DNA of 64,000 bases from an uncultured Actinomycetes bacterium (GTDB lineage Bacteria > Actinomycetota > UBA4738 > JACQTL01): contig CAVYXG010000009.1 of the NCBI GenBank assembly GCA_963772375.1, forward strand, positions 31,312 to 95,311, read 5' to 3'. The position numbers and the translations under genes were made by a program. This document shows, piece by piece, positions 31,249 to 64,000 of this stretch; position 1 is the stretch's first letter; every line of letters begins with the position of its first letter. The notes beneath the pieces were generated by a model. It was given only the letters and a program-made list of their open reading frames with translations, had not been told where the DNA came from and ran no database searches.

Positions 31249-31378
31249 GTTCCCATGCTCGCACGCCGGGGACGCTTCCGGCCGGTTCGGCGGCCCGCCC
31301 GCCCCGGGCGGCTTGCCCGTGTGCCGCGGGACCGCTGCCGCACGTCCCCCCGGTCGCGCTCACTAGCATGGCGACGAC

Positions 31379-49566: not shown

Positions 49567-50124
49567 GTGGGGAGGTTCGAGATGCCGACGACGATCGACG
49601 TGACGGCGATCCCGAGGCCGATCGAGGTGGGGCCGGAGATGGCGGCACTCCGCAGGTTCTTCCCCGGGGTCACCTGGAGGGGGACCATCCACGAGGGGGG
49701 CATGGGCCCGGGGACGCCGGCCATGACCGGGGTCGGCCGCGGCTCGGCGGGCCTCATCCAGGACGGCCGATGGATCGCGGGGGACTTCGAGCAGGAGCAG
49801 TTCCTCGAAGACGGGACGTTCGTCCTGCGGTGGCAGCTCCACTGGGTGTGTGGCTGGTCCCCCGAGCACGGTGAGTACCGGGCCTCGATGGTCGACAACT
49901 ACGGCCACGCGGACGTCTACCGGGGACGCCTCGACGGCGACCGGTTGGTGTTCGAATCGATCGCCGAGGAGGGTCCCCGCCTCCGGTTCACGTGGGACGC
50001 CTCCGACCTCGACCTGATCCGCTGGCGGAACGAGATGACCGTCGACGGCGAATCGTGGTTCCTCATCGAGGAGTACCCGATGGTGCCGGCACCCGGTGAC
50101 GCCGCCCCGCCGATCGAGGACTGA
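49567..50124 (+). CDS. Hypothetical beta-barrel protein (DUF1579-like)
   Basis: PEMAALRRF..W.GTI, YRASMVDNYG, WFLIEE; start may be 49582. Confidence 0.7.
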   Translation: MGRFEMPTTIDVTAIPRPIEVGPEMAALRRFFPGVTWRGTIHEGGMGPGTPAMTGVGRGSAGLIQDGRWIAGDFEQEQFLEDGTFVLRWQLHWVCGWSPEHGEYRASMVDNYGHADVYRGRLDGDRLVFESIAEEGPRLRFTWDASDLDLIRWRNEMTVDGESWFLIEEYPMVPAPGDAAPPIED

Positions 50125-50159
50125 AGCCGACGTCGTCGAGGACGAGGCGACCGTCGCGA

Positions 50160-50935
50160 TCAGTCGACCTCGGGTCCGGCTTCCTCGAGCGAGCCGAACC
50201 GCACCGGTACGCGATCCTCGCCCCACACGCGGCGTGGGGAAGCGAGGACCTCGAGCTCGATCCCCAGGCGCCGGTACAGCCGGAGAACCGGCACCGACAC
50301 ATCCAACTGATCGCGCTGAATCCCCGGGCCCGCAGCTCCAGCCAGCTCCGGCCGATCAGCCCGGCCAAACGCATCCCGCTCGAGCCCCTCCGGGTGGTCG
50401 TCCGCCGCGCCCATCCCCGTGTCGTCACGACCTGGAACCGGCGCCGATGGACGGTACAGGACCACCTTCTGCGAAAACGGCGCTCCCTTGACCCCCCGTC
50501 CGAACAGCAGGTGATCCCCCGAGATCGACGGGTTCCGCTCGGACTTCGCCGTCGTGTTGATGCCCGCAGGCACGGGGAGGAACTTCTTCGCTGCCAGATC
50601 CCAGAGCCTGACGCTCCAGTCACCGATCCCGCGCTTCGCACCTACCCCGTAGACCAGCACGTCCCCGTGTGGGCCACCGAGCTCGATGCTTCCCGCCTCC
50701 GCGCTGGTCGTTGTCGGGTTGACGGCGTACGCCGGCTGGCCGGCCGGTTTCACCTTCAACGACCAGACGTACGAGGTTCCCTTGTCGACGGCCCAGACCG
50801 TGTAGCCGGCCTCAACCGCGACGCTCCACTCGTTGTTGGCCGTGTCGATGAATTCGTCGGCGTGGCCGCCAGCGCCACCTGCGACACCGACAACAGGACC
50901 GCGACCACCATCGTCATGACCAGGGCCCTCCGCAT
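50160..50935 (-). pseudogene. Frameshifted and truncated secreted protein
   Basis: RBS, ATG and signal peptide (MRRALV...ALAATP) in one frame; mature-like sequence (EFIDTANNE...PSISGDHLLFGR..VVLYR) continues in another frame from about 50858. Confidence 0.6.
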
Positions 50936-51090
50936 GATCGCCTCCTCCCCGGATCGGCTGCACGAGCCACTGGTTTGGAGTGGACGGTGAAGCTCGGAAA
51001 GGGCAGGTCGCACCGAGCGACCTCGCAGGGCCACAGACACGAGCGCACGCGTCGGGATACCTTCTTCACGCCAACCGACGGGAGGCGGAG

Positions 51091-52314
51091 ATGACCACCA
51101 CAGAGGAACGGGGAGCCTGGACCGACCTGTTCGCCACCCGGGCCTCCGGCGACGCCGACGACGGTCTCGCATCGATCCTCGCTCTCTCCACCGCAACCGA
51201 CCTCATCTCCTTCGCCGGGGGCTTCCCTGACCCCGCCACGTTCCCGGGCCCCGTGCTCGCCGAGATCCTTGGTGATCTCCTGCGGGCCGGCGACGCCTCC
51301 GCGCTCCAGTACGCGCCGACCCCCGGCCTTCCCGGGTTCCGAGAGTTCCTGACGACCAGGATCGAGCGTCTGGAAGGCCGACGCCTCGCCGACGACGAGC
51401 TGCTCGTCACGAGCGGGGGGATCGAGGCTCTGGAGCTCCTCGGCAAGGCCTTCCTCGAACCGGGCGACCCGGCGTTCGTGGAGGCCCCGACCTACCTCGG
51501 CGCCATCATGGCCTTCCGGAGCTTCGAGGCTGACGTTCGCGGTGTCCCCGTGGACGACGGAGGCCTGGAGGTGGAGGAGCTCGGGCGGATGCTGTCGGTC
51601 GGGCCTCAGCCGAAGCTCCTGTACGTCATCCCGGACCACCAGAACCCGGCTGGGGTAACCCTGTCCGGCGACCGGCGCGCGCCGCTCGTCGAGCTGGCCC
51701 GGCGATATGGATTCCTCATCGTGGAAGACGTGGCCTATCGCGAGCTGGGATTCACCCGGGATCGCCTCCCCAGCCTGTGGGCACTCGGTCCCGACACGGT
51801 GGTCCAGGTCGGGACGTTCTCCAAGACGTTCTTCCCCGGGGTCCGGCTGGGGTGGGCCGCCGGCCCCAGGGAGGTGATCGCCGGGATGACTTGGGCCAAA
51901 CAGAACACCGATCAGTGTGCGGGGGCACTCGGGCAGCGGCTGCTCGAGGAGTACGGACGACGGGGATTGCTCGAGGACCAGAATGAGCGGGCCCGCGAGC
52001 TCTACCGGCGGCGCTGCGACCTCCTCCTGGCATCGCTGGAGGAACACCTGCCAGATGGCGTGAGGTGGACCCGCCCGCTGGGAGGCTTCTTCACGTGGTT
52101 GACCCTGCCCTCCGAGGCCGATGCCGTGGTCCTCGCGGCCCGGGGGATGGACGCGAAGGTGGCCTTCGTCCCGGGGGCTCCGTTTCATCCCGACGGGCGG
52201 GGCCGAAGCAACATCCGGCTGGCCTTCAGCCGGATCCGGGACGAGGAGATCGATACAGGAGCCGCGCGGCTCGGTCGGCTGCTGCGGGACGAGTTGCGGA
52301 GGCTGGGGACATGA
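51091..52314 (+). CDS. PLP-dependent aminotransferase class I/II (2-aminoadipate transaminase-like)
   Basis: ISFAGGFPD, LQY, QNPAG, EDVAY, GTFSKTFFPGVRLGW. Confidence 0.92.
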   Translation: MTTTEERGAWTDLFATRASGDADDGLASILALSTATDLISFAGGFPDPATFPGPVLAEILGDLLRAGDASALQYAPTPGLPGFREFLTTRIERLEGRRLADDELLVTSGGIEALELLGKAFLEPGDPAFVEAPTYLGAIMAFRSFEADVRGVPVDDGGLEVEELGRMLSVGPQPKLLYVIPDHQNPAGVTLSGDRRAPLVELARRYGFLIVEDVAYRELGFTRDRLPSLWALGPDTVVQVGTFSKTFFPGVRLGWAAGPREVIAGMTWAKQNTDQCAGALGQRLLEEYGRRGLLEDQNERARELYRRRCDLLLASLEEHLPDGVRWTRPLGGFFTWLTLPSEADAVVLAARGMDAKVAFVPGAPFHPDGRGRSNIRLAFSRIRDEEIDTGAARLGRLLRDELRRLGT

Positions 52315-52724
52315 GCGAGAGCGGCGAGTACTTCGCCTCCGAGTCCGGAGTTGCCGCCGACAAGCCCCGGTACGTGGAGATCGTCGATATCGCACCCATC
52401 GAGATCGCACCCGGGCTCCTATTCCGCCCGGTGCTCGGCGAGGGACTGCTCGTCAACTTCGTGCGGTTCGAACCCCATACCGAAGCACCCGTCCACACCC
52501 ACGAGGAGGAGCAGGTGGTCGTCGTGCTCGACGGCGAGATCGAGTTCGACGTCGATGGGGACGTGCGGACGGTCCGTCCGGGGGAGGCCATCCACCTCCC
52601 GCCGCATGTGCCGCACGGGGCGCGGACCCTCGACTCGAGCTGCTCCGAGATCGACATATTCTCCCCGCCCCGTCGCGCCCTGGTTGACCTCATGGGCCCG
52701 GCCGTGGAATCACCCGGGGCGTAG
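52311..52724 (+). CDS. Cupin domain protein
   Basis: PVHTHEEEQ, PPHVPHG, DIFSPPR; ATGA overlap. Confidence 0.88.
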   Translation: MSESGEYFASESGVAADKPRYVEIVDIAPIEIAPGLLFRPVLGEGLLVNFVRFEPHTEAPVHTHEEEQVVVVLDGEIEFDVDGDVRTVRPGEAIHLPPHVPHGARTLDSSCSEIDIFSPPRRALVDLMGPAVESPGA

Positions 52725-52730
52725 TCGCGG

Positions 52731-53513
52731 ATGGATCTCGGCCTCACGGGACACGCGGCGATCGTCACCGGAGGTTCGAGGGGGCTCGGGCGCGCCATCG
52801 CCCGCGAGCTCGCCACGGAGGGGGCGAACGTCGCGATCTGCGCCCGAACGGAGAGCGAGCTCGCCGCAGCCGCCAAGGAGCTCCGCTCGACCGGCCGGAC
52901 CGTGCACGTTCAGGTTGCGGACGTCACCGACCCCGAGCAGGTTCGGGACTTCGTGGCCCGGTCCGCCGAGGCGCTCGGCGGGGTCGACATCCTCGTCAAC
53001 AACGCCGGTCGGGCGCATCCGGGGAACTTCGAGACGCTCACCGACGACGACTGGCAGGACGATCTCGACGTGAAGCTGTTCTCGATGATCCGGTGCACGC
53101 GCGAGGTGCTCCCCCGAATGCGGGAGCGAGGCGGTGGGCGGGTGATCAACATCAATGCGGTGTTCGGTCGCTCTCCCGATCCCGCCTTCTTCGCCACCAG
53201 CGTGAACCGTGCTGCCTGCCTCTCCCTCACGAAGACGCTCGCCCAGGAGCTCGCCCCGGACGGGATTCTGGTCAACAGCGTCAACATCGGCTTCGTCCTG
53301 ACCCCGCAGTGGGAGAACATCCGCAGACGCAGGGCGCCCGACCTCTCCATCGACGAGTTCTCGCACCGCATAGCCCAAGCCGATGTCCCCCTCGGAAGGT
53401 TCGGCCGGGCCGAGGAGGTTGCCGGAATCGTCGCCTTCCTCGCCGGCGACCGGGCGGGCTACATCACGGGGGCATCGATCGACGTCGCGGGCGGCATGGG
53501 CAAGTACGTCTGA
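52731..53513 (+). CDS. SDR family oxidoreductase
   Basis: TGGSRGLG, VNNAG, YITGASIDVAGG. Confidence 0.9.
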   Translation: MDLGLTGHAAIVTGGSRGLGRAIARELATEGANVAICARTESELAAAAKELRSTGRTVHVQVADVTDPEQVRDFVARSAEALGGVDILVNNAGRAHPGNFETLTDDDWQDDLDVKLFSMIRCTREVLPRMRERGGGRVININAVFGRSPDPAFFATSVNRAACLSLTKTLAQELAPDGILVNSVNIGFVLTPQWENIRRRRAPDLSIDEFSHRIAQADVPLGRFGRAEEVAGIVAFLAGDRAGYITGASIDVAGGMGKYV

Positions 53514-53870
53514 AGCTCCAGAACCTGGGGGACGGACGGATTGGCGCTACGCCGAGACGGAAGTGCCGCCAGACGGAGGCCGAGGTCCCTCGGTCCCCGA
53601 CGGCCGTGACCCGCCAGGAGTAGGCACTGTTCGGCCTCAGGGCGTTGGTCTTGAGTGTGGAGGCGCCGAGCCCGGTCTCCTTCTGCACCGTGGGACCCGT
53701 CCTCGACCCGCGCTTCACGATCACCGTGTAGCCCTGGATGCACGACACGTCACTCCAGTCAAGGACGACCAGCGGGCCACGCAAGGTCGTGTTCGTGGGA
53801 GCGATCAGGGCGGGCCTCGAGGGCTTCCCGGGGCAGACCTCGACCGCGCCGACGTCGATGACCAGCCTGG
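53464..53870 (-). pseudogene. C-terminal remnant of a surface protein (DVGAVE motif + FN3-like domain)
   Basis: IDVGAVE..PALIAP..LDWSDV..GYTV..L.PNSAYSWRVTA; no credible start or signal peptide. Confidence 0.5.
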
Positions 53871-53929
53871 GGGCGCACGATCCCACGCTGGTCGTTGGTC
53901 GGCGCGCCGCTGCTCGTGCCCCGTCCACT

Positions 53930-54976
53930 TCAGAACCAGCCGCGCCGCCTGAAGAGCGAGAGCAGGAGGCCGACGATCGTGATCTCCAGGCCGATGCCCA
54001 ACAGCGGAAACAGCGGAAGGGTCGATATGTGCCGCACCATCCAGCCGAAGTTCTGGCCGAAGAAGCCGGTGATGAAGGTGAGCGGCAGGAAGATCGTCGC
54101 GATCACGGTGAGCTGCTTCATCACGGCGTTGAGTCGATTCGAGACCGTCGACAGGTAGACGTCCATCGCGCCGGTGAGGAGATCGCGGTAGCTGTCGATC
54201 AGATCGCTGATTCGGATCAGGTGATCGTAGACGTCGCGGAAGTACCGCTCGTCCTCCTTTCCGAGCCCCGGCAGCTCGGTGAGGCCCCCCATGAGGCTCG
54301 CGAACGCGTCGCGCTGAGGCGTGACGGCCTTGCGCATGCCCACCAGTAGGCGCTTCATCCCGAAGATCTCCTGGAGCTGCCGGTCATCCGCCTTCTGGAA
54401 GATGCTGCTCTGGAGCTCGTCGATCCGATCGTCGAAGGCCGACAGGATCGGAAAGAAGCTGTCGACGAGGCCGTCCACGACGCGGTACAGCAGCAGCGAC
54501 GGGTGGTCGAACTTCGCGTCGCTCCTCTGGTAACGCCGCCGGATCTCGGCGAAGGACGGGCAGTCGTCGTGGTGGATAGTGACGAGGAAGCGCTCGGAAT
54601 AGAAGCAGTGCACCTCCACCAGGCGGTCTTGATCCGATGTCGCTCCGTAGACCACTACGAAGATGAAGTCGTCGTAGTCGTCGAACTTGGCCCGCTGGTC
54701 GAAGTGCTGGGAGTCCTCGATGGCAAGCGGATGGAACTTGAAGACGTCACGGAGGATCTCGAAGTCCACCGCGGTGGGCTGGTCGAGGTCGAGCCAGAAG
54801 AAACGCCCGCTCGCAAGGCGGGCCTCGACCGTCTCTCGGCTGAAGTGGACGCGCTCAGAGCCGTCCCGGTCTACCACGTAACAGGCCGAGGGCCCTGTCC
54901 GGTCCGGCGTAGCTTGTGTCCGGGTGGAGTCAAGGCCGACGGCGAGCGGATCGCTCGCCGACGAATCATGTCCCAT
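53930..54976 (-). CDS. corA: CorA family Mg2+/Co2+ transporter
   Basis: FHPLAIED, YFRDVYDH, LTVIATIFLPLTFITGFFGQNF (GQN variant of GMN). Confidence 0.92.
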   Translation of the reverse strand: MGHDSSASDPLAVGLDSTRTQATPDRTGPSACYVVDRDGSERVHFSRETVEARLASGRFFWLDLDQPTAVDFEILRDVFKFHPLAIEDSQHFDQRAKFDDYDDFIFVVVYGATSDQDRLVEVHCFYSERFLVTIHHDDCPSFAEIRRRYQRSDAKFDHPSLLLYRVVDGLVDSFFPILSAFDDRIDELQSSIFQKADDRQLQEIFGMKRLLVGMRKAVTPQRDAFASLMGGLTELPGLGKEDERYFRDVYDHLIRISDLIDSYRDLLTGAMDVYLSTVSNRLNAVMKQLTVIATIFLPLTFITGFFGQNFGWMVRHISTLPLFPLLGIGLEITIVGLLLSLFRRRGWF

Positions 54977-55019
54977 GGCCGCGATGGTACTGCCGAGCGC
55001 TTGGGCCAGAGGCGTCGTC

Positions 55020-55592
55020 AGACCAGTCGCATCGGAGGCGGCAACTACCCCAGCTTCACGGTGAAGGCGCCTCCCCGTGGTCCGCTGACGGCCAATTCGT
55101 GCACGTGCTCGGCCCCGCGGAGCAGGTGGTGCTCGGCCTCAGCGTGTGGGACGTCGGCCGGGTTCCCCGGAACCCGTGCCACTCGATCGGGCACCTGTAC
55201 GATCCCGGAGCGACGGTCGAGGATCTGGCTGCGGCACTCGCGGCCCAGCCGATGCGCCATGCCACGATGCCGACGGACGTGGTGCTCGGCGGCTACCACG
55301 GGCGGTACCTCCAGTGGTCGGTGCCGGCTCACATGGTGGTGACCGGGGATTCCGACTTCGCAGGCTGCGACGTCCGGAGCGGCGGACACCGGGACTTCGT
55401 CAGCTGGTTCGGCAACCGGATGGGCGAGCGGTGGCAGCAGGAGGCAGGCCAGGTGGACCGGCTGTGGATCCTGAATGTCACGGGCAACGGCTCGTGGTCG
55501 ACGCGACCTACTCGCCTGGAGCGACGCAGTCGCAGCGCGACGAGGAGGACCGGGTCGTGCACTGGCTCCGGTTCGACGGCTCGGCTGGGTAG
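55020..55592 (+). pseudogene. Multiply frameshifted remnant of an exported protein
   Basis: Protein-like sequence spread over changing frames: YPSFTV / VWDV..NPC..TVEDLAAAL..DRLWILNV / GQRLVVDA..LRF*; no N-terminus. Confidence 0.55.
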
Positions 55593-55757
55593 GTACCGGT
55601 GAGCAGGGCGAGCCAGGCCAGGGGCGGCTGGTTCAGCGCCTTCCGTGGGCCCGTCCCCGCGACGTAGGGCGAGATCGAGCGCAGGGTCGCCGGAACAGAA
55701 CTTGTCGCGGCCGCGCGATCCTTCGTGCTCGCCGACGTGTATCCCGCTGGTGGTGGT

Positions 55758-56141
55758 TCAGTCGGCATCCATCGAACCGAGGGCTCGCTCAGCACTCGCC
55801 AGGGCCTGGTCCGGATTCACGCCGAGCTGTCGGGCTTGGAGAGCGAAAGCTCGTGCCGCCTCGAGCAGCTCGCGCTCGCGGTCGGGCGGCTCGGACTCGA
55901 TGGGGAGGGAACGTACCGATGTGCCGTTCCTGCCCCTGCCTCCGATCAAGCCGGACTGCTCGAGCTCCCGGTAGGCGCGTGCCACCGTGCCGACGGCGAG
56001 CCCGAGGTCCCCGGCCAGCTGTCGGATCGATGGCAGGCGCGTCCCCGGTCTGAGCACGCCCGAGGCGATCATGGTCGCCACTTGCGAACGGATCTGTTCG
56101 TACGGAGGAACAGGGGAGCCCGCGTCCACCCGAACGATCAC
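55758..56141 (-). CDS. GntR family (YtrA-type) transcriptional regulator
   Basis: PPYEQI, G.RLPSIRQLA.DLGLAVGTVARAYREL; short C-terminal helix. Confidence 0.93.
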   Translation of the reverse strand: MIVRVDAGSPVPPYEQIRSQVATMIASGVLRPGTRLPSIRQLAGDLGLAVGTVARAYRELEQSGLIGGRGRNGTSVRSLPIESEPPDRERELLEAARAFALQARQLGVNPDQALASAERALGSMDAD

Positions 56142-57007
56142 GCCTGGCTCCCGACCTCGGTTCGGCGTACCTGCCAGGAGTCTGCGCGACCAAGCAGCAA
56201 CCACACGAACATCGCGAGCGCGAAGGTCAACAGAGCAGCCCACCCGAACCAGGACCCGCCCCACGGGCCGGCCGAAGGAGCGCGATGCGACAGCGCAGCG
56301 CACTGAGCCGAGACGATGAGGAGCACGATCGCCAAGCCGGCTCCGCCAACCGCATGGATCGACGATGCCCGGATCGCCTGATCGGCGACGAGCAGGTCGT
56401 CCGACACTACGGGCTGGGGGCGCCCCGAGATCGTCCGCTCGAGGATCTCGAGCACCACGTTCAGCCCGACCGCGACCAGGGCGAGTGTGACGAACCACGG
56501 GAACCGCAGTCCTGTGAGCGACGCGCCCGAGATTCCGGCCCCGAGAGCGAGCCCGATCGAAGCGGTCGCTGCGATCCGTGTCCCCCAGACGGTCCAGGCG
56601 GGGAGGTAGTCGTGTACCCCTCGTGGCGAGAGCGAGGCCGACCGCATGGTTCCGGGCGGCGGACGTCGAAGCGAGAGCTCAGCGACCACCGTGCCGGTCA
56701 GGTATCCGATCATGATCAGCTGCCAGAAACCGATCGCCACATGCTGTCCGCCGGTAGCGAGCGTCAGCCCGATGGAGGCCAGGTACGCGACCAGCGCACC
56801 GACAATCCGGAAGCGACGCGCACGCCCAAGGTATCGGTACACCATCGGACGACTGGTCTCGGTCAACACCAGGCCGTGACCGTTCGCCCATCGATCCGCG
56901 GACCCGAAGCCCCCGATCCGCGCCGACGCGTAGATGATCGTTCCGAGTATCACGGCCGGGACTACGAGGATCGCCGCTTCCTGGAGTCCGATCCCAAACG
57001 CATCCAT
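56138..57007 (-). CDS. Multi-pass membrane protein
   Basis: About 7 TM segments; RSASLSPR...YLP motif; GTGA overlap with GntR. Confidence 0.8.
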   Translation of the reverse strand: MDAFGIGLQEAAILVVPAVILGTIIYASARIGGFGSADRWANGHGLVLTETSRPMVYRYLGRARRFRIVGALVAYLASIGLTLATGGQHVAIGFWQLIMIGYLTGTVVAELSLRRPPPGTMRSASLSPRGVHDYLPAWTVWGTRIAATASIGLALGAGISGASLTGLRFPWFVTLALVAVGLNVVLEILERTISGRPQPVVSDDLLVADQAIRASSIHAVGGAGLAIVLLIVSAQCAALSHRAPSAGPWGGSWFGWAALLTFALAMFVWLLLGRADSWQVRRTEVGSQA

Positions 57008-57056
57008 GCTCGGTGCCCCTTTCGCCGAGCGGTCACCCATCCGGCGGTCGCTGAGA

Positions 57057-57088
57057 AGCGTATTAATGTACTGCTACATTGACACACT
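57057..57088. promoter_or_regulatory. Candidate GntR/YtrA operator palindrome
   Basis: AGCGTATTAATGTA-CTGC-TACATTGACACACT; AT-rich inverted repeat about 50 nt upstream of the membrane protein-gntR operon. Confidence 0.65.
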
Positions 57089-57489
57089 CCAAGGCCGGCG
57101 TCAACTTCGCAGGCAAGGACCACCCAGTCCCGAACGTCGTCCTCGATGACCTCCGGCGGCGATGGGAGGTGGCACAAGGGAGGTTCGGGCGTCTTCGGCC
57201 TCGCGACGGACCTTGGCCATGGCCCTGGGTTTCTTCTCCTACCATCTGGCCAAGTCCCGCCGGAGTGCTGGAGTAGGACTGGGAGAGAACTCTGTCTGCG
57301 CTGGTCAGCGCCCCTCTCCTCGACCGCCAGGTAACGCGGCAAGGCCGGTTGGTAACGCTCTTGGCACGTGCCGCGTGACTGAGAGGGGCGCCGGGAGTAC
57401 ATCCCCGGCGTGCGAAGGCGCACGTGATGCCGAAGATCTCGACTACCAGAGTCCTTGTTCCCTCAATCCTTCGAGGTGCCCATCGAACC

Positions 57490-57745
57490 TCAGCCAAGAT
57501 CTCGGCGGCCGTCGCACTCGGATACAACCGCAAGTCCTGCAGACCGATGTGGAGCTCCGTGATCGGTTCGGGCGGGCTCCTCGCCTACCTGTGGGTGGGC
57601 GGGTCCGTGTTCAACGGGTATGTCGATCCTGATCAGCCTGACCCGCTCCTCCACGCCGTCGATCTGGATGCGGCCCGTGTCCCCGTCCACCACCGCGAGG
57701 ACGGTCGCTTCCTGACCGTCGAGGGGCGCAGCCGACGGACCCGTG
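57490..57745 (-). pseudogene. Degraded thermonuclease (SNase-like) remnant
   Basis: ATVLAVVDGDT..IDGVEERVRLIRIDIP resembles the SNase N-terminus, then similarity is lost. Confidence 0.6.
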
Positions 57746-57851
57746 ACCTGCAGGCGTCGCCACGATGAGCAGCGGCACCGAGAAAGCGGTTGATGACCAC
57801 CTTCGGCACCTCGTGAGCGTACGCTTACCGCCCGTCTCCCAGCTCGCCCGA

Positions 57852-57896
57852 TGCATGGCTTCGGGCCTCGGGGCCAGCGCGGCACCCCCCTACGGT
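57852..57896 (+). promoter_or_regulatory. Photolyase promoter: TGCATGGCTTC motif plus -10 TACGGT (leaderless)
   Basis: Motif starts 39 nt before the -10 hexamer; GTG start 6 nt after the hexamer. Confidence 0.45.
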
Positions 57897-57902
57897 GGAC
57901 GG

Positions 57903-59315
57903 GTGCGCACCCTCGTGCTGTTCACCCGTGACCTCCGCCTTCACGACCATCCGGACCTGAGCGAGGCGTGCCGGACCGGGGAGGTCGTCCCCGCGTTCGT
58001 GTGGGATCCGGACCTCGCGTCGGCTTCACCGAACCGGGCACGGTTCCTGGCGGAGAGCCTGGTGGATCTGGAACAGGCCCTCCGGCAGCGGGGCAGCCGG
58101 CTGCTCCTCCGGCGCGGGCCCGTCGCGGAGGGCGCAGCGCAACTGGCGATGGAGACCCGCTGCGACCGGATCTTCCTCACCGCGGACGCGGGGACCTACG
58201 CGACCGCACGGCTCGAGCGCCTGAACCGGTTGGCGGCGGACCGCGGCATCGGCGTGGAGACCTTCCCCGGCCACGCCGTCGTCGAGCCGGGAACCATCGC
58301 CCCAGCCGCGCGGTCCTCGTACCGGGTGTTCACCCCGTACTGGCGGGCGTGGCGCGCCGCTGACTGGCGCCGGCCCCTCCCCGCTCCGCCGTCGATCCCG
58401 ACGCCCCCGGACCTCGAGCCCGGAGCCCGGCCGGACCCTTCCCGGATCTTCCCCACCGCGTCCGACCTGCCGCCCGGCGGCTCCCACGCCGGCCGACGGA
58501 GTCTCTCGCGATTCCTGCGCGACGACCGCGGCGACGACCGCGGCCTCCGGAACGACCTGGCCGCCGACGCCACGTCGAGGCTGTCGCCATACCTCCGATT
58601 CGGCTGCGTGTCCGCGACGGAGGTGGCTCACCGTGTCGAGCGGGCCGGAGGGGATGAGTGGTTCCTCCGGCAGCTCGCGTGGCGCGACTTCTACTCTCAG
58701 CTCCGGGTCGAGCTGCCCGAGCTCACCCGCCAGGACCTCCGTGAGCCTCCGGACGGTCCCCGGCTCCAGGACGACGAGCTGTTCGCGGCGTGGGCGGAGG
58801 GGCGGACCGGATTCCCCCTGGTGGACGCCGGCATGCGCCAGCTCCTCGGGGAGGGGTGGATGCACAACCGGGCCCGGATGGTGACCGCGTCGTTCCTGGT
58901 CCGCCGGTGCGGCATCCCGTGGCAGGAGGGGGCCCGCCACTTCCTCGCGCATCTGGTCGACGGCGACCCGGCCAGCAACGCCGGTGGATGGCAGTGGGCC
59001 GCCGGGACGGGAACCGACCCCCGGCGGTCGCGTCCGCTGAACCCGCTGCGACAGGCCGCCCGGTTCGACCCCACCGGCGCGTACATCCGGCGCTACGTGC
59101 CCGAGCTGGTGGGACTGCCCACCCCCCTCGTCCACGCGCCGTGGCTGGACCCGGTCCGGGCTCGTTCCGTGGGTTACCCGGACCCGGTGATCGAGGTCGC
59201 CGGCATGGGGATCCGCGACCCGATCAGATCCGACCCGGCCAGGACATCGTCCCCCAGGTACGTCCCGAGGGCGTCCCGGCGCGAGGCGCTCGAGGAGAAC
59301 GCCGCCCCGGCGTAG
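57903..59315 (+). CDS. phrB: Deoxyribodipyrimidine (CPD) photolyase
   Basis: RDLRLHDH, FTPY, TSRLSPYLRFG, QLAWRDF, GWMHNRARM, DGDPASN.GGWQW. Confidence 0.94.
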   Translation: MRTLVLFTRDLRLHDHPDLSEACRTGEVVPAFVWDPDLASASPNRARFLAESLVDLEQALRQRGSRLLLRRGPVAEGAAQLAMETRCDRIFLTADAGTYATARLERLNRLAADRGIGVETFPGHAVVEPGTIAPAARSSYRVFTPYWRAWRAADWRRPLPAPPSIPTPPDLEPGARPDPSRIFPTASDLPPGGSHAGRRSLSRFLRDDRGDDRGLRNDLAADATSRLSPYLRFGCVSATEVAHRVERAGGDEWFLRQLAWRDFYSQLRVELPELTRQDLREPPDGPRLQDDELFAAWAEGRTGFPLVDAGMRQLLGEGWMHNRARMVTASFLVRRCGIPWQEGARHFLAHLVDGDPASNAGGWQWAAGTGTDPRRSRPLNPLRQAARFDPTGAYIRRYVPELVGLPTPLVHAPWLDPVRARSVGYPDPVIEVAGMGIRDPIRSDPARTSSPRYVPRASRREALEENAAPA

Positions 59316-60088
59316 AAGACCTCCACCCCGGACAGCCCGTTCACCGCCTTCAGCGACGCCACGGTGCTCTGGCGGTGGACGCTCCGCTGCGCCACCACCA
59401 CCGCGGCCCGGGCTCGGGTGGTCCGGCAGGCCTCGACCAGGGCTCCGGGCGGAGTGAGGGCACCGAGCATCCGGGTCGGCCATCCCCGCAGCGCGAGCAA
59501 CGTGGCGAAGGCCTCCAGTCCCACGCTGTGCAGTTCCTTCGGGCCGCAGGCGAGCACCACAGGCGCGACGGCCCTCGGCGGGGGAGCCAATGTCCGCAGG
59601 CGGGCCAGCCACGACCGGACCATGTCGGTGAGCAGGTGCTCGTTCTCGACGTCGCACGTGCCCGCTTTCCACCGGGAGCCCACCTCGTGCAGGGCATCCA
59701 CGGCGACCCTCCCGATCGCGGCGTCCACGCCCAGGCGGCCGGCCGCCTCGTCCAGGGTGGCGCGCACGCGGTCCGCGTCCAGGGCGGTCGCCGCCGCGAG
59801 GAGGGCATCGACGAAGGGTCGCGAGGCGGCGTCGGAGCCCGCCCCCGAGGCGGCCATCGCGGCCGCATCCCTGGCCGTGTGCCCGGCTCTGATGGCATCC
59901 CGCATCACCCGCAGACGCTCGGCGTCCTGGATCGAGTACCGCCGGTGGCGTCCGTCGGTCCGGGACGGGCTCCCGAGTCCGTACCGCCGCTCCCATGACC
60001 GGATGGTCGGGACTGGGATGCCCAACATCTCCGAGACGCCCGCGATGGGCATCCGTCCGGACGCACGCTTCACCGTTCGTTCGCTCAT
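59174..60088 (-). CDS. MerR-family regulator with cobalamin-binding domain (CarH/LitR-like photoreceptor)
   Basis: TIRSWERRYG..R..G.HRRYS MerR HTH; W-x9-EH (WKAGTCDVENEH); ELHSVG ExHxxG B12 motif; LGA.TP. Confidence 0.88.
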   Translation of the reverse strand: MSERTVKRASGRMPIAGVSEMLGIPVPTIRSWERRYGLGSPSRTDGRHRRYSIQDAERLRVMRDAIRAGHTARDAAAMAASGAGSDAASRPFVDALLAAATALDADRVRATLDEAAGRLGVDAAIGRVAVDALHEVGSRWKAGTCDVENEHLLTDMVRSWLARLRTLAPPPRAVAPVVLACGPKELHSVGLEAFATLLALRGWPTRMLGALTPPGALVEACRTTRARAAVVVAQRSVHRQSTVASLKAVNGLSGVEVFYAGAAFSSSASRRDALGTYLGDDVLAGSDLIGSRIPMPATSITGSG

Positions 60089-60090
60089 AA

Positions 60091-60879
60091 TCAGTTCGGG
60101 CGGAGGGTCCCGCCGTACACCTGCCATGCCAGCAGCGACTTGGCGACCAGCGACAGCAGGATGTACACCCGCTCGCCGTAAAGGTAGTCCCGCCACGGAC
60201 CGACCTTGCGGTACTGCAGCACCATGTTCACGGCGAACACGTTGAAGAACAGGAAGATCGACACGAAGATGAAGTAGACGAAGGTCGGGGGGCCCACCTC
60301 CCCGCGGCCCGCTCCGATGAGGTAGATCGCGATGGCCACCCACGGGACCGCACCGGCGAACACGCCGAACCAGTAGGACAGCCAGTTCGTCTTCCGGGTG
60401 GTCTGATTGTGGACCTCCATAACCCAGCCGAACAGGATCATGCACGCGTTCACAGCGGCGATCGCGAGCAGCGCGACGACGTCGTAGATGCCGACGAGCA
60501 TCGAGATCACCACGATCATCAACGACGAGCTGACGGCGTACTCCATCCAGCGCCCCGGGTTCATGCCGAGGGCGAGGTTCCGGCGGTACCAGCCGTACCC
60601 CACGGTGGCGATGAGCAGGTGGGCGAGGGCCGACAGGAACAGGAACCCCACCACCAGCAGCGCGACGGGCAGGTCGAACAGGACCTGCGGCTCGGGGAAG
60701 AGGCGAACCCCTGGGCCGGGCTGGTCCTGCAGGAAGTTGGACATCACCGGCAGGGTGACGCCGCTCGCGATGGCGAGCATGACGAGGCCCTGCACGAGAT
60801 GGAGGGATCCGGCGCCGAGGTTCCAGCTGCGGAGCCGATCGGAGCGCTCCGCTCGAGCCGCGATCGCCGCTGTGCTCAT
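60091..60879 (-). CDS. heR: Heliorhodopsin
   Basis: 7 TM; WN..G.LH..Q, SALAH, NPGRWMEYAVSSS (Glu counterion), YGERVYILLSLVAKSLLAWQ with the SLVAK retinal lysine. Confidence 0.95.
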   Translation of the reverse strand: MSTAAIAARAERSDRLRSWNLGAGSLHLVQGLVMLAIASGVTLPVMSNFLQDQPGPGVRLFPEPQVLFDLPVALLVVGFLFLSALAHLLIATVGYGWYRRNLALGMNPGRWMEYAVSSSLMIVVISMLVGIYDVVALLAIAAVNACMILFGWVMEVHNQTTRKTNWLSYWFGVFAGAVPWVAIAIYLIGAGRGEVGPPTFVYFIFVSIFLFFNVFAVNMVLQYRKVGPWRDYLYGERVYILLSLVAKSLLAWQVYGGTLRPN

Positions 60880-60882
60880 GTC

Positions 60883-61350
60883 TCATGCCTCCTTCGCCGG
60901 GCGCGAGCGGGCCGCGCCGAGCCAGGCCTTCATTCCGGCGAGCGCCGCCTTGCCCATCTGGTTGAACGCTCCCCTGAGGAAAGGGGCGGCGAGGATGGCC
61001 AGTCCGGTGAGCCGGAGGTCTGCCTCGTAGGTGATGCGGGTCCCGCCGGGGACGGCGGCGAACTCGATGGTGTCGACCGCCTTCACCCGGGGCCCCTCAC
61101 CTCGGAGGACCACCCGGTGGGGGCGCCGGTACTCGGTGGTCACGTACGTCATGTCCTGCTCCGAGCCGCGGAACCGGACCCTCACGAGGTACTCCGCCCC
61201 CACCCCGCTCGGGTCCCCGCTGCCATCCCGGACCCGCTCGGCCCGGACCACGCCCGGGTCCCATCGCTCGGAGCTGGAGAAGTCCGCCACCGCGTCGAAC
61301 GCGTCACCTGCCCGCCCCGACACCTCGATCACCTCTCGAAGCACCGCCAC
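60883..61350 (-). CDS. SRPBCC/START-like ligand-binding protein
   Basis: AFDAVADFS...WDPGV, TRITY.ADL, C-terminal helix; GTG start fits the GGAGG spacing. Confidence 0.87.
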   Translation of the reverse strand: MAVLREVIEVSGRAGDAFDAVADFSSSERWDPGVVRAERVRDGSGDPSGVGAEYLVRVRFRGSEQDMTYVTTEYRRPHRVVLRGEGPRVKAVDTIEFAAVPGGTRITYEADLRLTGLAILAAPFLRGAFNQMGKAALAGMKAWLGAARSRPAKEA

Positions 61351-61364
61351 CTTCATCCTCCTGT

Positions 61365-61429
61365 TTGCATCGGTTCTCTCCACAAGGCTAGGTCTCCCCC
61401 CGATAGCTTCCATGCATGAACCTGTGCAA
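61365..61429. promoter_or_regulatory. Divergent promoter region with two inverted copies of the TGCAYMGGTTC motif
   Basis: TTGCATCGGTTC (61365-76, +) and TTGCACAGGTTC (61429-18, -), each 38 nt upstream of a TAGC(T/C)T -10 box on its own strand. Confidence 0.6.
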
Positions 61430-61452
61430 GTGCGATGAGGAAGGACGTTGCC

Positions 61453-62451
61453 GTGGCTGATGCCGCCTCCCTGCTCGACCGGGCCCTCGAAGCCCTGGTC
61501 GTCCCGTCGTTCTCCAGGATCGGCCCCGCGGTGCGCCGGCGCCTGTTCGACTGGGACGACCCCGCCTCGCCCTCCGTGGCCGGGCGGACCGTGGCCGTCA
61601 CCGGGGCGACCTCCGGCCTCGGCTTCGTGGCCGCCGAGGCGCTGGCCCGGGCCGGGGCCCGCGTCCTGCTCATCGGACGTGACCAGGCACGGACCGAGGC
61701 CGCCGCCGAGCGCATCCGGGGGGCGACGGGGCGCGACGACCTGGGGGTGTACCTCGCTGACCTCAGCGACCTGTCGAAGGTCCGCTCCCTCGCCGAGGCC
61801 ATCACCGCGTCCGAGCACCGGCTCGACGTGCTGGTCCACAACGCGGGGGCGCTGCTCACCGAACGACGGGACTCAGTGGACGGCCACGAGATGACGTTCG
61901 CCACGATGGTCCTCGGGCCGTTCTTGCTCACCCGCGAGCTCCTGCCGATGCTGCGGAGGAGCGACGACGGGCGGATCGTCACGGTCACCTCCGGGGGGAT
62001 GTACGCCCAGGCGTTGCGGCTCGACGACCTCCAGAGCGAGGAGTACCCGTACCGGGGCTCGATCGCCTACGCCAGGGCCAAGCGGGCCCAGGTGGTCCTG
62101 ACCCGTCTGTGGGCCCGGCAGCTCGCGGGCACCTCGGTGGTGGCGCACGCCATGCATCCGGGCTGGGCCGACACGCCCGGGGTGGAGGCCTCGCTTCCTC
62201 GGTTCCGCCGGCTGATGGGTCCCCTCCTGCGGACCCCCGAGGAGGGCGCCGACACCATCGTCTGGCTCGCCGCCGCGCCGGAGGCGTCCCGGTCGACCGG
62301 CCAACTGTGGCTCGACCGCCGGCCCCGACCCCTGGACAAGCTGCCCTGGACCCGGGTGAGCCCGGACCAGGCCCGTGCGCTGTGGCAGGCCTGCGACCAC
62401 ATGGTCGGCGATGCCCTGGAGCCCCGGCCGCCGCGGCCGTTGACTGCATAG
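61453..62451 (+). CDS. SDR oxidoreductase (DHRS12/retinol-dehydrogenase-like)
   Basis: TGATSGLG, HNAG, SGGMY, YARAK, MHPGWADTPG. Confidence 0.9.
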   Translation: MADAASLLDRALEALVVPSFSRIGPAVRRRLFDWDDPASPSVAGRTVAVTGATSGLGFVAAEALARAGARVLLIGRDQARTEAAAERIRGATGRDDLGVYLADLSDLSKVRSLAEAITASEHRLDVLVHNAGALLTERRDSVDGHEMTFATMVLGPFLLTRELLPMLRRSDDGRIVTVTSGGMYAQALRLDDLQSEEYPYRGSIAYARAKRAQVVLTRLWARQLAGTSVVAHAMHPGWADTPGVEASLPRFRRLMGPLLRTPEEGADTIVWLAAAPEASRSTGQLWLDRRPRPLDKLPWTRVSPDQARALWQACDHMVGDALEPRPPRPLTA

Positions 62452-62489
62452 GTTCGCACCCCACAACCTCTGCAACTGCCGGGGACCAT
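62445..62489 (+). promoter_or_regulatory. Internal promoter/operator: TGCATAGGTT-N10-AACCTCTGCA plus -10-like GACCAT
   Basis: 9/10 inverted repeat; motif starts 39 nt before the hexamer; ATG 6 nt after it. Confidence 0.45.
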
Positions 62490-62495
62490 GGGGGC

Positions 62496-63794
62496 ATGCG
62501 GATCGCGGTGATCGGTGGAGGGATCTCGGGCCTCGGCGCGGCGTGGGCGCTCTCCCGTCGGCACGCGGTGACGGTCTACGAATCCGAACGTCGGCTCGGA
62601 GGGCACGCGAACACGGTCGAGATCGACGAAGGCGACCGGGTCGTTCCGGTCGACACCGGGTTCATCGTCTACAACGAGCGCACCTACCCCAACCTGACCC
62701 GGCTGTTCGCCGCCACCCGCGTCTCCACGGAGCCGAGCGACATGTCGTTCGCGGTGTCCCGGGACGGCGGCCGGTTCGAGTACGGCGCCAGCGCGCCGGG
62801 CCTGCTCGCGCAGCTCCCGAACCTGGCCCGGGGCAGCTACCGGACCATGGTCCGCGACATGCTGCGGTTCATGCGCGAGGCTCCCGCCCTGGTCGGGTCG
62901 GGGTCCACCGAGCCGCTGGGTGAGTTCCTGGACCGGGGCCGGTACGGGGAGCCGTTCCGGCGCGACTTCCTGCTCCCGATGCTGGCCTGTATCTGGTCCT
63001 CGAGCCTCGACGCGATGCTCGACTACCCCGCGGAGTCGATGGCCGGCTTTCTGGACAACCACGGCCTGCTCCGGGCGGTCGGGCAGCCCCGGTGGCGCAC
63101 GGTGACCGGCGGAAGCCGCGAGTACGTGCGGCGGCTCTCGGCCGGCTTCGCCCGGGATGTCCGGCTGGCGACGCCGGTGCAGGCCGTCCAGCGCCACGCC
63201 GACGGCGTGGTGATCAGGGACGCCCGGGGCGGCGCCGACCGCTTCCACCACGTCGTATTCGCCACCCACGCCGACATCACGCTCCGGATCCTCGGGCCCG
63301 ACGCCTCCCCCACCGAGCGTGCGGTGCTGTCGGCGTTCCGGTACCAGGAGAACCGGGCGGTCCTGCATCGGGACCCCTCGCTGATGCCGCGACGTCGCCG
63401 GGTCTGGTCGAGCTGGAACTACCTGGCGGATGGCGACGACGGCTCGGAGCGGGTCAGCCTGTCGTACTGGATGAACCGGCTCCAGAACCTCCGCACCGAA
63501 CGACCGGTCATCCTGACCCTGAACCCCTCGCGCGAGCCCCGCCATGTGGAGAGCGAGCACATCTACCACCATCCGCAGTTCGACGGCCGGGCGGTGAACG
63601 CCCAGCGCCGGTTGCCGGGGATCCAGGGTGTGGACCGGACGTGGTTCGTCGGCGCGTGGACCGGCTACGGCTTCCATGAGGACGGCCTGCGCTCGGGCCT
63701 CGAGGTCGCGGCCGCCCTCGGCGCGCCGGCGCCGTGGTGGGCCTCGCGGACCGTGACCCACCCGGAGCGTCGGATGGCTGGAGCGGTAGCGTGA
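62496..63794 (+). CDS. FAD-dependent oxidoreductase/desaturase of the CFA/furan-fatty-acid cluster type
   Basis: GGGISGL, RLGGHANT, VDTGFIVYNERTYPNL, SWNY, YGFHEDG. Confidence 0.92.
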   Translation: MRIAVIGGGISGLGAAWALSRRHAVTVYESERRLGGHANTVEIDEGDRVVPVDTGFIVYNERTYPNLTRLFAATRVSTEPSDMSFAVSRDGGRFEYGASAPGLLAQLPNLARGSYRTMVRDMLRFMREAPALVGSGSTEPLGEFLDRGRYGEPFRRDFLLPMLACIWSSSLDAMLDYPAESMAGFLDNHGLLRAVGQPRWRTVTGGSREYVRRLSAGFARDVRLATPVQAVQRHADGVVIRDARGGADRFHHVVFATHADITLRILGPDASPTERAVLSAFRYQENRAVLHRDPSLMPRRRRVWSSWNYLADGDDGSERVSLSYWMNRLQNLRTERPVILTLNPSREPRHVESEHIYHHPQFDGRAVNAQRRLPGIQGVDRTWFVGAWTGYGFHEDGLRSGLEVAAALGAPAPWWASRTVTHPERRMAGAVA

Positions 63795-64000
63795 GCGAGG
63801 CGCGAGCCTCCGCGCTGTACGTCGGCCGGGTCACCCACGCGCGTCACATCCCCCCCAAGCACCGGCTGTCCTACAGGGTGTGGTACCTGCTCCTGGATCT
63901 CGACGAGATCGAGGAGCTGGACCGCGACCTCCCTGGGTTCGCCGCCGAGCGACCCGGGCCGGTGAGCTTCCGGGCGGCCGATCACGGGCCCGGCGACGGC
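63791..64000 (+). CDS. DUF1365 family protein (runs off the window)
   Basis: SALYVGRVTHAR..P.H...Y....LLLDLDE...SF..ADHG; GTGA overlap. Confidence 0.88.
   Translation, partial: MSEARASALYVGRVTHARHIPPKHRLSYRVWYLLLDLDEIEELDRDLPGFAAERPGPVSFRAADHGPGDG

Follow-up and report, generated by a model that had tools for sequence, protein, structure and literature searches.

What does a heliorhodopsin (HeR) do in one operon with a predicted vitamin B12-dependent light switch, in a bacterium whose genome yields no phytoene synthase? Heliorhodopsins bind all-trans retinal, have an inverted membrane topology, and run a slow photocycle; their roles are largely open, a handful having been tied to partner enzymes, and lists of their gene neighborhoods exist. 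The locus that raises the question lies at the end of a 64,000-nucleotide (nt) stretch of DNA from an uncultured Actinomycetes bacterium, hereinafter the window (positions 31312 to 95311 of contig C9 in genome G000, which comprises 4.75 Mb in 10 contigs, has 70% G+C, and is 95% complete). There, a minus-strand operon consisting of SRPBCC, HeR, and litR, the last encoding a MerR-type regulator with B12-binding domains, is met by a convergent photolyase gene and adjoined by divergent genes for a short-chain dehydrogenase (SDR), an FAD oxidoreductase, and a DUF1365 protein. We put at roughly two in three the probability that these seven genes form a light regulon without carotenoid genes, under the island's own adenosylcobalamin (AdoB12)-dependent CarH/LitR-type repressor, and that HeR is one of its outputs.

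A first-pass annotation of this DNA had already read the order SRPBCC, HeR, CarH/LitR-like regulator, with gaps of 3 and 2 nt, together with the convergent photolyase and the divergent SDR, FAD oxidoreductase, and DUF1365 genes. The gaps and order are exact by the coordinates of the open reading frames (ORFs), and the ORF list and two family scans agree on all seven genes, strands, and families. It had also proposed that HeR is a light-regulated member of a photo-oxidative defense regulon and may interact with photolyase or the regulator; comparative cis-element evidence, in the form of a site shared by this genome, its relatives, and HeR genes unlinked to litR, now argues for the first of these, the shared regulation, which would respond to light.

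The regulator resembles the B12 photoreceptors across most of its length. Its residues 9 to 234 align to Thermus CarH (5c8d; E value of 1e-20), with W140-x9-E150-H151 and H187 falling on the corresponding Thermus residues, and these motifs are kept in 40 of 40 LitR-like sequences; we take the Wx9EH motif with a lower-axial histidine to be the signature of AdoB12 binding. Both PF13411 (48 bits) and PF02607 (36.1 bits) score above their cut-offs. The genome has one LitR-type gene, the sole other B12-binding_2 match being a 1259-amino-acid (aa) open frame on contig C2, and it encodes a PduO-type adenosyltransferase. The helix-turn-helix region of the clade to which this LitR belongs (clade 1; PVPTIRSWERRYG) differs from those of a second LitR clade and of Thermus CarH (SPELLRAWEQRYG, SAEVLRQWERRYG), which fits a changed operator.

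A candidate for that operator was obtained by comparing the SDR/SRPBCC intergenic region and the regions upstream of photolyase and HeR with those of two relative loci, L001 and L002, whose proteins are 55 to 73% identical to those of G000. The comparison yielded an 11-bp half-site, TGCAnnGGTTC (more fully, TGCA(T/C)nGGTTC; on the other strand, GAACCnnTGCA), whose occurrences in the island are given in Table 1. The sites at 61366 and 61418 face outward, towards SRPBCC and SDR; nowhere else in the genome do two exact sites form a pair. The inverted pair further downstream runs across the SDR stop codon, leaving 21 nt to the ATG of the FAD-oxidoreductase gene, and L001 has an exact site at the same junction. 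Ahead of the photolyase gene, the placement of the putative -10 hexamer would imply a leaderless mRNA. An inverted-repeat scan of the three promoter regions returned nothing beyond the half-sites. Reading the half-site as an ECF-sigma promoter element was considered and dropped, there being no conserved second element 16 to 18 nt away.

Table 1. Genes and candidate regulatory sites of the island, in window coordinates
Feature	Position	Strand	Remarks
Half-site TGCATGGCTTC, one mismatch	57852-57862	+	Ends exactly 40 nt before photolyase GTG; same 40-nt spacing in L001 and L002
Putative -10 TACGGT	57891-57896	+	6 nt before GTG 57903; same place TACCGT in L001, TAGCGT in L002
Photolyase	57903-59315	+	PF00875 E 2e-40 (138.8 bits); PF03441 E 2e-66 (223.5 bits)
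MerR-B12 regulator, LitR/CarH-type, both B12-binding domains	59174-60088	-	PF13411, PF02607; NCBIfam CarH model E 1e-29
Heliorhodopsin (HeR)	60091-60879	-	PF18761 E 1e-102, 342.7 bits (cut-off 26.7); NF038020 343.5 bits (cut-off 100)
SRPBCC (Polyketide_cyc2), first gene of operon	60883-61356	-	PF10604 E 3e-17
Exact half-site TGCATCGGTTC; towards SRPBCC, GAACCGATGCA	61366-61376		8 nt after TAGCCT -10-like hexamer; kept in L001, one mismatch in L002
Exact half-site GAACCTGTGCA, facing SDR	61418-61428		6 nt before SDR ATG; kept in L001 and L002
SDR, LPOR/PRK06197-like branch	61435-62451	+	Family scans
Inverted pair TGCATAGGTTC-N8-CAACCTCTGCA	62445-62474		Exact site 62445-62455 plus one-mismatch site 62464-62474
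FAD oxidoreductase, amine-oxidase/phytoene-desaturase superfamily, UfaD-like by position	62496-63794	+	Family scans
DUF1365 protein, UfaO-like	63791-64000 (window end), on to G000:C9:95914	+	Family scan

The half-site recurs among relatives. We surveyed 294 genomes of the class, 109 of which have LitR-like genes, and took the 29 best loci with LitR orthologues (50 to 61% identity), each with about 1.5 kb of flank on either side. The 107,687 bp of these loci contain 32 exact sites where the genome-wide rate would predict about 1.5, and 31 of the 32 lie no more than 160 nt upstream of the start of LitR, SRPBCC, HeR, SDR, or photolyase; at least one exact site is present in 23 of the 29 loci, and in 6 the distance from half-site to photolyase start is 40 to 41 nt. 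Where litR is the first gene, its promoter carries the palindrome GAACCnATGCA-N4-5-GCATnGnTTC, the right half of which overlaps a TTGnTT -35 element; this element stands 17 nt before a TAnnnT -10, itself 6 to 7 nt before the start codon. Such a layout is what would be expected of a leaderless, autoregulated promoter with a candidate operator over its -35 element, as described for CarH-type repressors. Across 80 HeR loci from other genomes (1.155 Mb), there are 17 exact sites, nine of them in L001 and L002; all nine are intergenic or at equivalent gene junctions, including one in L002 that lies 103 nt ahead of its HeR-litR operon.

The same site also precedes HeR genes that do not stand beside litR. 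Of the 22 loci of this kind that could be assessed, 12 have a half-site with at most one mismatch in the roughly 110 nt ahead of HeR, and 6 have an exact one; at the genome-wide rate, chance alone would put such a site in a given 110 nt with a frequency of 0.037 or 0.0016, respectively, and the resulting binomial tails are only indicative because the relatives are not independent. Several of these unlinked HeR loci share the geometry of the litR promoters, as at L114, where 17 nt separate the palindrome from TACCGT and 6 more separate TACCGT from the ATG. A clade-1 LitR is encoded in 11 of the 12 genomes with site-bearing unlinked HeR genes, and 3 of the 9 site-less genomes have no LitR-like match.

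The mechanism that we propose follows class I LitR/CarH proteins, which act as repressors in the dark and release DNA in the light (PMC9758184 and PMC4557120, in the parts consulted). In the dark, an oligomer of AdoB12-bound LitR would occupy the 11-bp half-sites overlapping three promoters and so hold down the SRPBCC-HeR-litR operon with the divergent SDR gene, the FAD-oxidoreductase/DUF1365 pair, and the photolyase gene. In the light, the Co-C bond would break, the repressor would leave the DNA, and all three units would be transcribed, supplying photolyase for DNA repair, UfaD/UfaO-like enzymes for furan fatty acids that counter singlet oxygen, SDR, SRPBCC, HeR, and LitR itself. Gene content, the conservation and positions of the motif, the kept B12 residues, and the absence of crt genes are observed; LitR binding and light-induced expression are inferred, as is whatever HeR does once it has been made.

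Several observations weigh against this proposal. Exact half-sites number 68 genome-wide and lie mostly in coding DNA of the CTGCACGGGTTC type, so that single sites prove little. A scan of the genome for pairs returned six: two belong to the island, and the other four, each an exact site with a one-mismatch partner, lie on C1 (one) and C5 (three); with the operator-like pairs both within the island, either the regulon is very small or the scan was too strict. The photolyase site has one mismatch and sits upstream of a poor -35 region, which makes repression geometry there ambiguous. Among the relatives, many of which belong to one family and are not independent, 6 of the 29 LitR-ortholog loci have no exact site, and 10 of the 22 unlinked HeR loci have no site, although some of the latter may be promoter-distal members of operons. 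The regulator scores 20.3 bits against PF02310 (B12-binding), below the cut-off of 32.1, in an alignment spanning residues 177 to 270, and 103.4 bits against the NCBIfam CarH equivalog NF052513, far under its cut-off of 400; we therefore name it a class I LitR/CarH-type protein, a family-level relative and not a CarH equivalog. The Thermus CarH operator consists of tandem, ACA-containing 11-bp direct repeats, and the half-site differs from these repeats. It is the association of the site with litR's own promoter that points to LitR as the factor binding it. Finally, the sequencing runs holding island DNA (20 listed, with shares of at most 0.23) are all DNA metagenome contigs and include no RNA run.

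Linkage of the genes in relatives, which the first-pass annotation had named as a check, holds more often than chance would have it: in 10 of the 80 HeR loci, no more than 2 kb separates HeR from a LitR-like gene, and the distance, by coordinates, is within 2.5 kb in 11 of the 50 other HeR-bearing genomes of the class. Among these 11, two have a HeR-litR operon, two a CMAS-HeR-photolyase operon convergent on litR, and five a divergent clade-2 LitR; in the remaining two, one LitR is 2 kb away and one stands beside a 63-residue HeR remnant. Viewed from the regulator, photolyase adjoins litR in 16 of the 29 LitR-ortholog loci (14 convergent and 2 divergent), SRPBCC is upstream of litR and divergent from SDR in 7, and HeR precedes litR in 2, namely, genomes G194 and G210, from which L001 and L002 derive. 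HeR is thus found between SRPBCC and litR in G000, upstream of litR in G194 and G210, and between CMAS and photolyase in G120 and G107; outside the class, it stands directly before the FAD-oxidoreductase/DUF1365 pair in an Acidimicrobiia contig (L051) and between SRPBCC and SDR, with a LitR-like gene next door, in a Chloroflexia genome (L077). Were HeR not functionally tied to this gene set, its insertion there at several points would be hard to account for. LitR-like genes occur in 41 of the 51 HeR-bearing genomes of the class versus 68 of the 243 others, a co-occurrence that is descriptive only, the relatives not being independent.

The first-pass annotation had remarked that the window has no crt or blh genes. 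This holds and, for two profiles, extends to the genome: searches of the 95%-complete assembly with SQS_PSY (phytoene synthase) and RPE65 (carotenoid oxygenase) gave no match, whereas the BCD (blh) search, which also gave none in the genome, is uninformative because no control genome matched either. The usual targets of CarH, carotenoid genes, are accordingly not represented by any SQS_PSY gene here. With no carotenoid pathway in the genome, the classical task of CarH is not open to this LitR, and with no retinal pathway found, HeR must obtain its retinal from outside. The situation is general in the class, in which SQS_PSY was found in 20 of the 294 genomes, always as two tandem copies (G256 and G283, unpublished, among them), and HeR in 51, of which 50 lack SQS_PSY, with G274 as the sole exception. 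Organisms of this class apparently retain a retinal-binding protein although they lack a pathway to carotenoids.

HeR itself, the only one in the genome, matches the solved TaHeR structure (6is6) with an E value of 5e-69; its SLVAKSLLAW aligns to SLVAKSALAW of TaHeR and its RWMEYAVS to RWFEYSIS. Residues K247, E113, H27, and H87 are invariant across 16 sequences, and we take K247 to be the Schiff-base lysine of the last helix, E113 the glutamate counter-ion, and the two histidines to be functional.

Three other explanations of these data deserve to be weighed against a LitR-controlled regulon. The half-site might belong to another transcription factor or to an alternative sigma factor, litR being one more gene of that regulon and HeR being co-regulated by something other than the B12 switch. 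The dissimilarity between the half-site and the Thermus CarH repeats would then be no surprise, nor would the position of the photolyase site, which precedes the inferred transcription start by about 45 nt, a distance at which activators also bind. We nevertheless consider this explanation unlikely: whenever litR comes first in its operon the site accompanies it, as a palindrome overlapping the -35 element; the islands of G000, L001, and L002 have no other regulator gene in common; the motif is contiguous and not a -35/-10 pair; and both the changed recognition helix of clade 1 and the co-distribution of site and clade-1 LitR described above (11 of 12 site-bearing genomes, with no LitR-like match in 3 of 9 site-less ones) fit LitR as the binding factor.

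Alternatively, HeR could be an input instead of an output, i.e., a membrane photoreceptor that signals by contact to LitR, SRPBCC, or photolyase in a two-chromophore circuit, whose operon keeps the partners in proportion. The tight junctions of 3 and 2 nt, the recurrence of the HeR-litR order in G194 and G210, the CMAS-HeR-photolyase operons of G120 and G107, and published HeRs reported to bind and modulate a photolyase, glutamine synthetase, and ABC transporter (according to the portions of PMC11109279 consulted) would all suit such a role. However, 27 of the 29 LitR-ortholog loci have no adjoining HeR, and 39 of the 50 other HeR genomes of the class have no LitR alongside, yet many of them carry the candidate operator, a pattern predicted by co-regulation and not by an obligate pair. 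We regard signaling by HeR to its neighbors as improbable, and it is compatible with the LitR-controlled regulon. A combined circuit, in our estimation similarly improbable, would have AdoB12-LitR induce HeR in the light and retinal-loaded HeR then act as a light-gated membrane modulator of photolyase, UfaD/UfaO, or SRPBCC/SDR; SRPBCC and SDR might handle retinal or oxidized lipids, and HeR would be the effector arm of a sun-damage response in scavengers of B12 and retinal. That HeR is a recently transferred passenger, nonfunctional in a host without retinal and of no physiological meaning in its operon, strikes us as very unlikely. Such a history could be read into the lack of SQS_PSY and RPE65 matches in the genome, the absence of HeR from the 8 other genomes of the family, a LitR that is closer to that of another family (61%) than to those of its own genus (43 to 52%), and the 63-residue HeR remnant beside litR in G287. 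The HeR frame is nonetheless intact, with the Schiff-base lysine, the counter-ion glutamate, and both histidines invariant, and the 50 of 51 class genomes that have HeR without SQS_PSY (all but G274) keep intact HeRs, so that a lack of endogenous retinal is the rule here and not a sign of decay.

How the island reached this genome is a separate matter. The LitR of G000 is 61% identical to that of G046, from another family, and only 43 to 52% identical to those of the same genus (G253 and G255; L149 was also in the comparison). HeR occurs in none of the 8 other genomes of the family, and no island genes lie within about 4 kb of the LitR gene in the same-genus genome G255. The island may have arrived in G000 by transfer. 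In G287 (C6:1541446-1542739), a divergent LitR orthologue is 254 nt away from the C-terminal HeR remnant of 63 residues, which may be a decayed copy of a HeR/LitR arrangement.

HeR is also found with a second, distant clade of LitR. These clade-2 proteins are about 30% identical to the island LitR and keep the B12 residues (L016, L020, L023, L029, L048, L117, and L122); their genes diverge from an operon of which HeR is the last or the sole gene. L021 is also listed among the clade-2 LitR/HeR loci. In 8 of 9 clade-2 loci, ACA-N8-ACA (two ACA triplets 11 nt apart) stands just after a TTGAC-17/19-TAnnnT promoter, and these repeats resemble the Thermus CarH repeat. The operons often start with what we take, by eye from the translations, to be a small DUF378-like membrane protein and sometimes a fasciclin-like protein. 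Two distant LitR lineages would thus each have taken HeR as a target.

Regarding the remaining products, the photolyase finds its best NCBIfam models in photolyase_8HDF and PRK10674 and is 53 to 58% identical to 11 orthologues; because it falls below the equivalog cut-offs of all models, its assignment to CPD class I/8-HDF type is probable only and at the level of the family. The stretch marked in the first-pass annotation starts at 57852, upstream of the likely photolyase start, the GTG at 57903; orthologues begin at the aligned MR(V/T)LVLF. The obvious candidates for partners of HeR are photolyase and the lipid enzymes, in view of the CMAS-HeR-photolyase operons found in G120 and G107. The 3' ends of photolyase and litR overlap tail to tail by 142 nt (59174-59315), so that each transcript would be antisense to the other's tail; in the orthologue loci that were looked at, the overlap is 0 to 30 nt at most.

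Searched against solved structures, SRPBCC gave a single weak match (E value of 0.005). Its gene may start instead at GTG 61350, which has better spacing to AGGAGG, and the short junctions of 3 and 2 nt suggest that SRPBCC, HeR, and LitR are translationally coupled. Among solved structures, the SDR comes closest to a mycobacterial SDR (3rd5) and to light-dependent protochlorophyllide oxidoreductases, and the NCBIfam LPOR model also matches; a role in handling retinal or lipid aldehydes is conceivable. Other SDRs adjoin HeR in Anaerolineales loci L052, L058, L066, and L070.

The label of lipid-protection genes in the first-pass annotation can be sharpened to a match in gene order and families with the UfaD-UfaO furan-fatty-acid pair. 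The FAD oxidoreductase gene directly precedes, and overlaps by 4 nt, the DUF1365 gene, which is the ufaD-ufaO arrangement of Rhodobacter. According to the portions of PMC7380195 consulted, UfaO carries DUF1365, UfaD is an NAD/FAD-binding protein related to phytoene desaturases, the two act as oxygenase and desaturase, respectively, in furan fatty acid synthesis, and furan fatty acids scavenge singlet oxygen. By position and family, the island's pair is UfaD/UfaO-like, with a putative role in furan fatty acid synthesis. A CMAS-family methylase gene directly follows DUF1365 in L001 and L002 but not in G000, which has one full-length CMAS gene, unlinked, at C1:1428978.

Other elements were sought around the island. 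Rfam and tRNA scans of 50000-64000 gave no match, a scan of 57000-64000 for consensus sigma-70 promoters found none, and a terminator scan of the same region found a single terminator-like site, inside the HeR gene, which equals the chance level. A repeat of about 160 bp (core TTCTCCTACCATTTGGCCAAG..CCCGCTGGAGTGCTGGAGT) is present in four copies, all on contig C9 in the same orientation and 74 to 79% identical to one another: one at 57201-57357 of the window and the others at G000:C9:96009-96161, 104417-104522, and 117991-118055. The seven-gene island is flanked by two of them, the first ahead of photolyase and the second 95 bp past the DUF1365 stop. The window copy has no Rfam or tRNA match, and no copy occurs in any of the relative loci compared. 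Between the repeat and photolyase, a minus-strand ORF (57490-57885) looks truncated; it contains VVDGDTGRIQIDG..VRLIRIDIPV, a stretch that, by eye, is reminiscent of staphylococcal-nuclease-like proteins.

If the LitR-controlled regulon is real, it carries a prediction for a whole actinobacterial class, that a vitamin B12 light switch governs the transcription of HeR along with that of photolyase and furan-fatty-acid genes, and the defined 11-bp candidate operator makes this prediction concrete and cheap to check. It would also be a CarH/LitR regulon unrelated to carotenoids, in genomes without phytoene synthase. Placing HeR downstream of another photoreceptor would change how its "sensory" role should be tested, and high-GC hosts could gain a new green-light switch in the pairing of operator and repressor.

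Parts of this arrangement have precedents among HeR neighborhoods. HeRs have been linked to oxidative-stress genes (PMC8612252, in part), and in the sections of PMC11109279 consulted, ten groups of genes are named as frequent neighbors in HeR operons, photolyase, SDR, a MerR-family regulator, glutamine synthetase, and an ABC transporter being among them. In those sections, operons of the MerR, SDR, and TerC groups lack other grouped genes, whereas here MerR, SDR, and photolyase occur together, and the MerR neighbor is neither identified there as a B12 photoreceptor nor given an operator. A limited literature search found no paper joining HeR with LitR or CarH, and none in print describing the MerR neighbor as a B12 photoreceptor, an operator common to HeR, litR, phr, and ufa genes, or carotenoid-less genomes; supplements lay outside this search, and that of PMC11109279 may list MerR-group operons.

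Light responses without HeR offer further precedents. The light-inducible regions of the class II LitR proteins of Pseudomonas (PplR/PmlR) contain nearly the same gene set, namely, phrB, a short-chain dehydrogenase, an FAD-dependent oxidoreductase, and ufaM, beside a LitR-family gene. As described in the parts of PMC9758184 consulted, however, these regulators have no working B12 domain and are LOV dependent, their hosts are diderm, and the regions include no HeR or SRPBCC member. A MerR-like/phr operon likewise mediates the blue-light response of Vibrio cholerae (PMC5241685, in part). The sigmaE-ChrR singlet-oxygen regulon of Rhodobacter sphaeroides includes RSP1091-1087 (with ufaD and ufaO), for photo-oxidative membrane defense (according to the accessible portions of PMC7380195), with the same FAD desaturase-like gene followed by DUF1365, to which L001 and L002 add a CMAS-type methylase. 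There, the regulator is a sigma/anti-sigma pair that senses singlet oxygen and not a photoreceptor, and in G000 the CMAS gene is unlinked.

Also close are the class I LitR/CarH proteins themselves (CarH/LitR of Thermus thermophilus, LitR of Bacillus megaterium, and CarH of Myxococcus xanthus), with which the island regulator shares the N-terminal MerR helix-turn-helix, the four-helix bundle with Wx9EH, and the Rossmann-type B12 domain with its axial histidine, and, in its orthologues, a candidate operator over litR's own promoter. It departs from them in its half-site, GAACCnATGCA and often palindromic, unlike the tandem repeats of Thermus, and in its predicted targets: where class I LitR/CarH proteins usually control carotenoid genes, the island has none to control and would have a heliorhodopsin instead.

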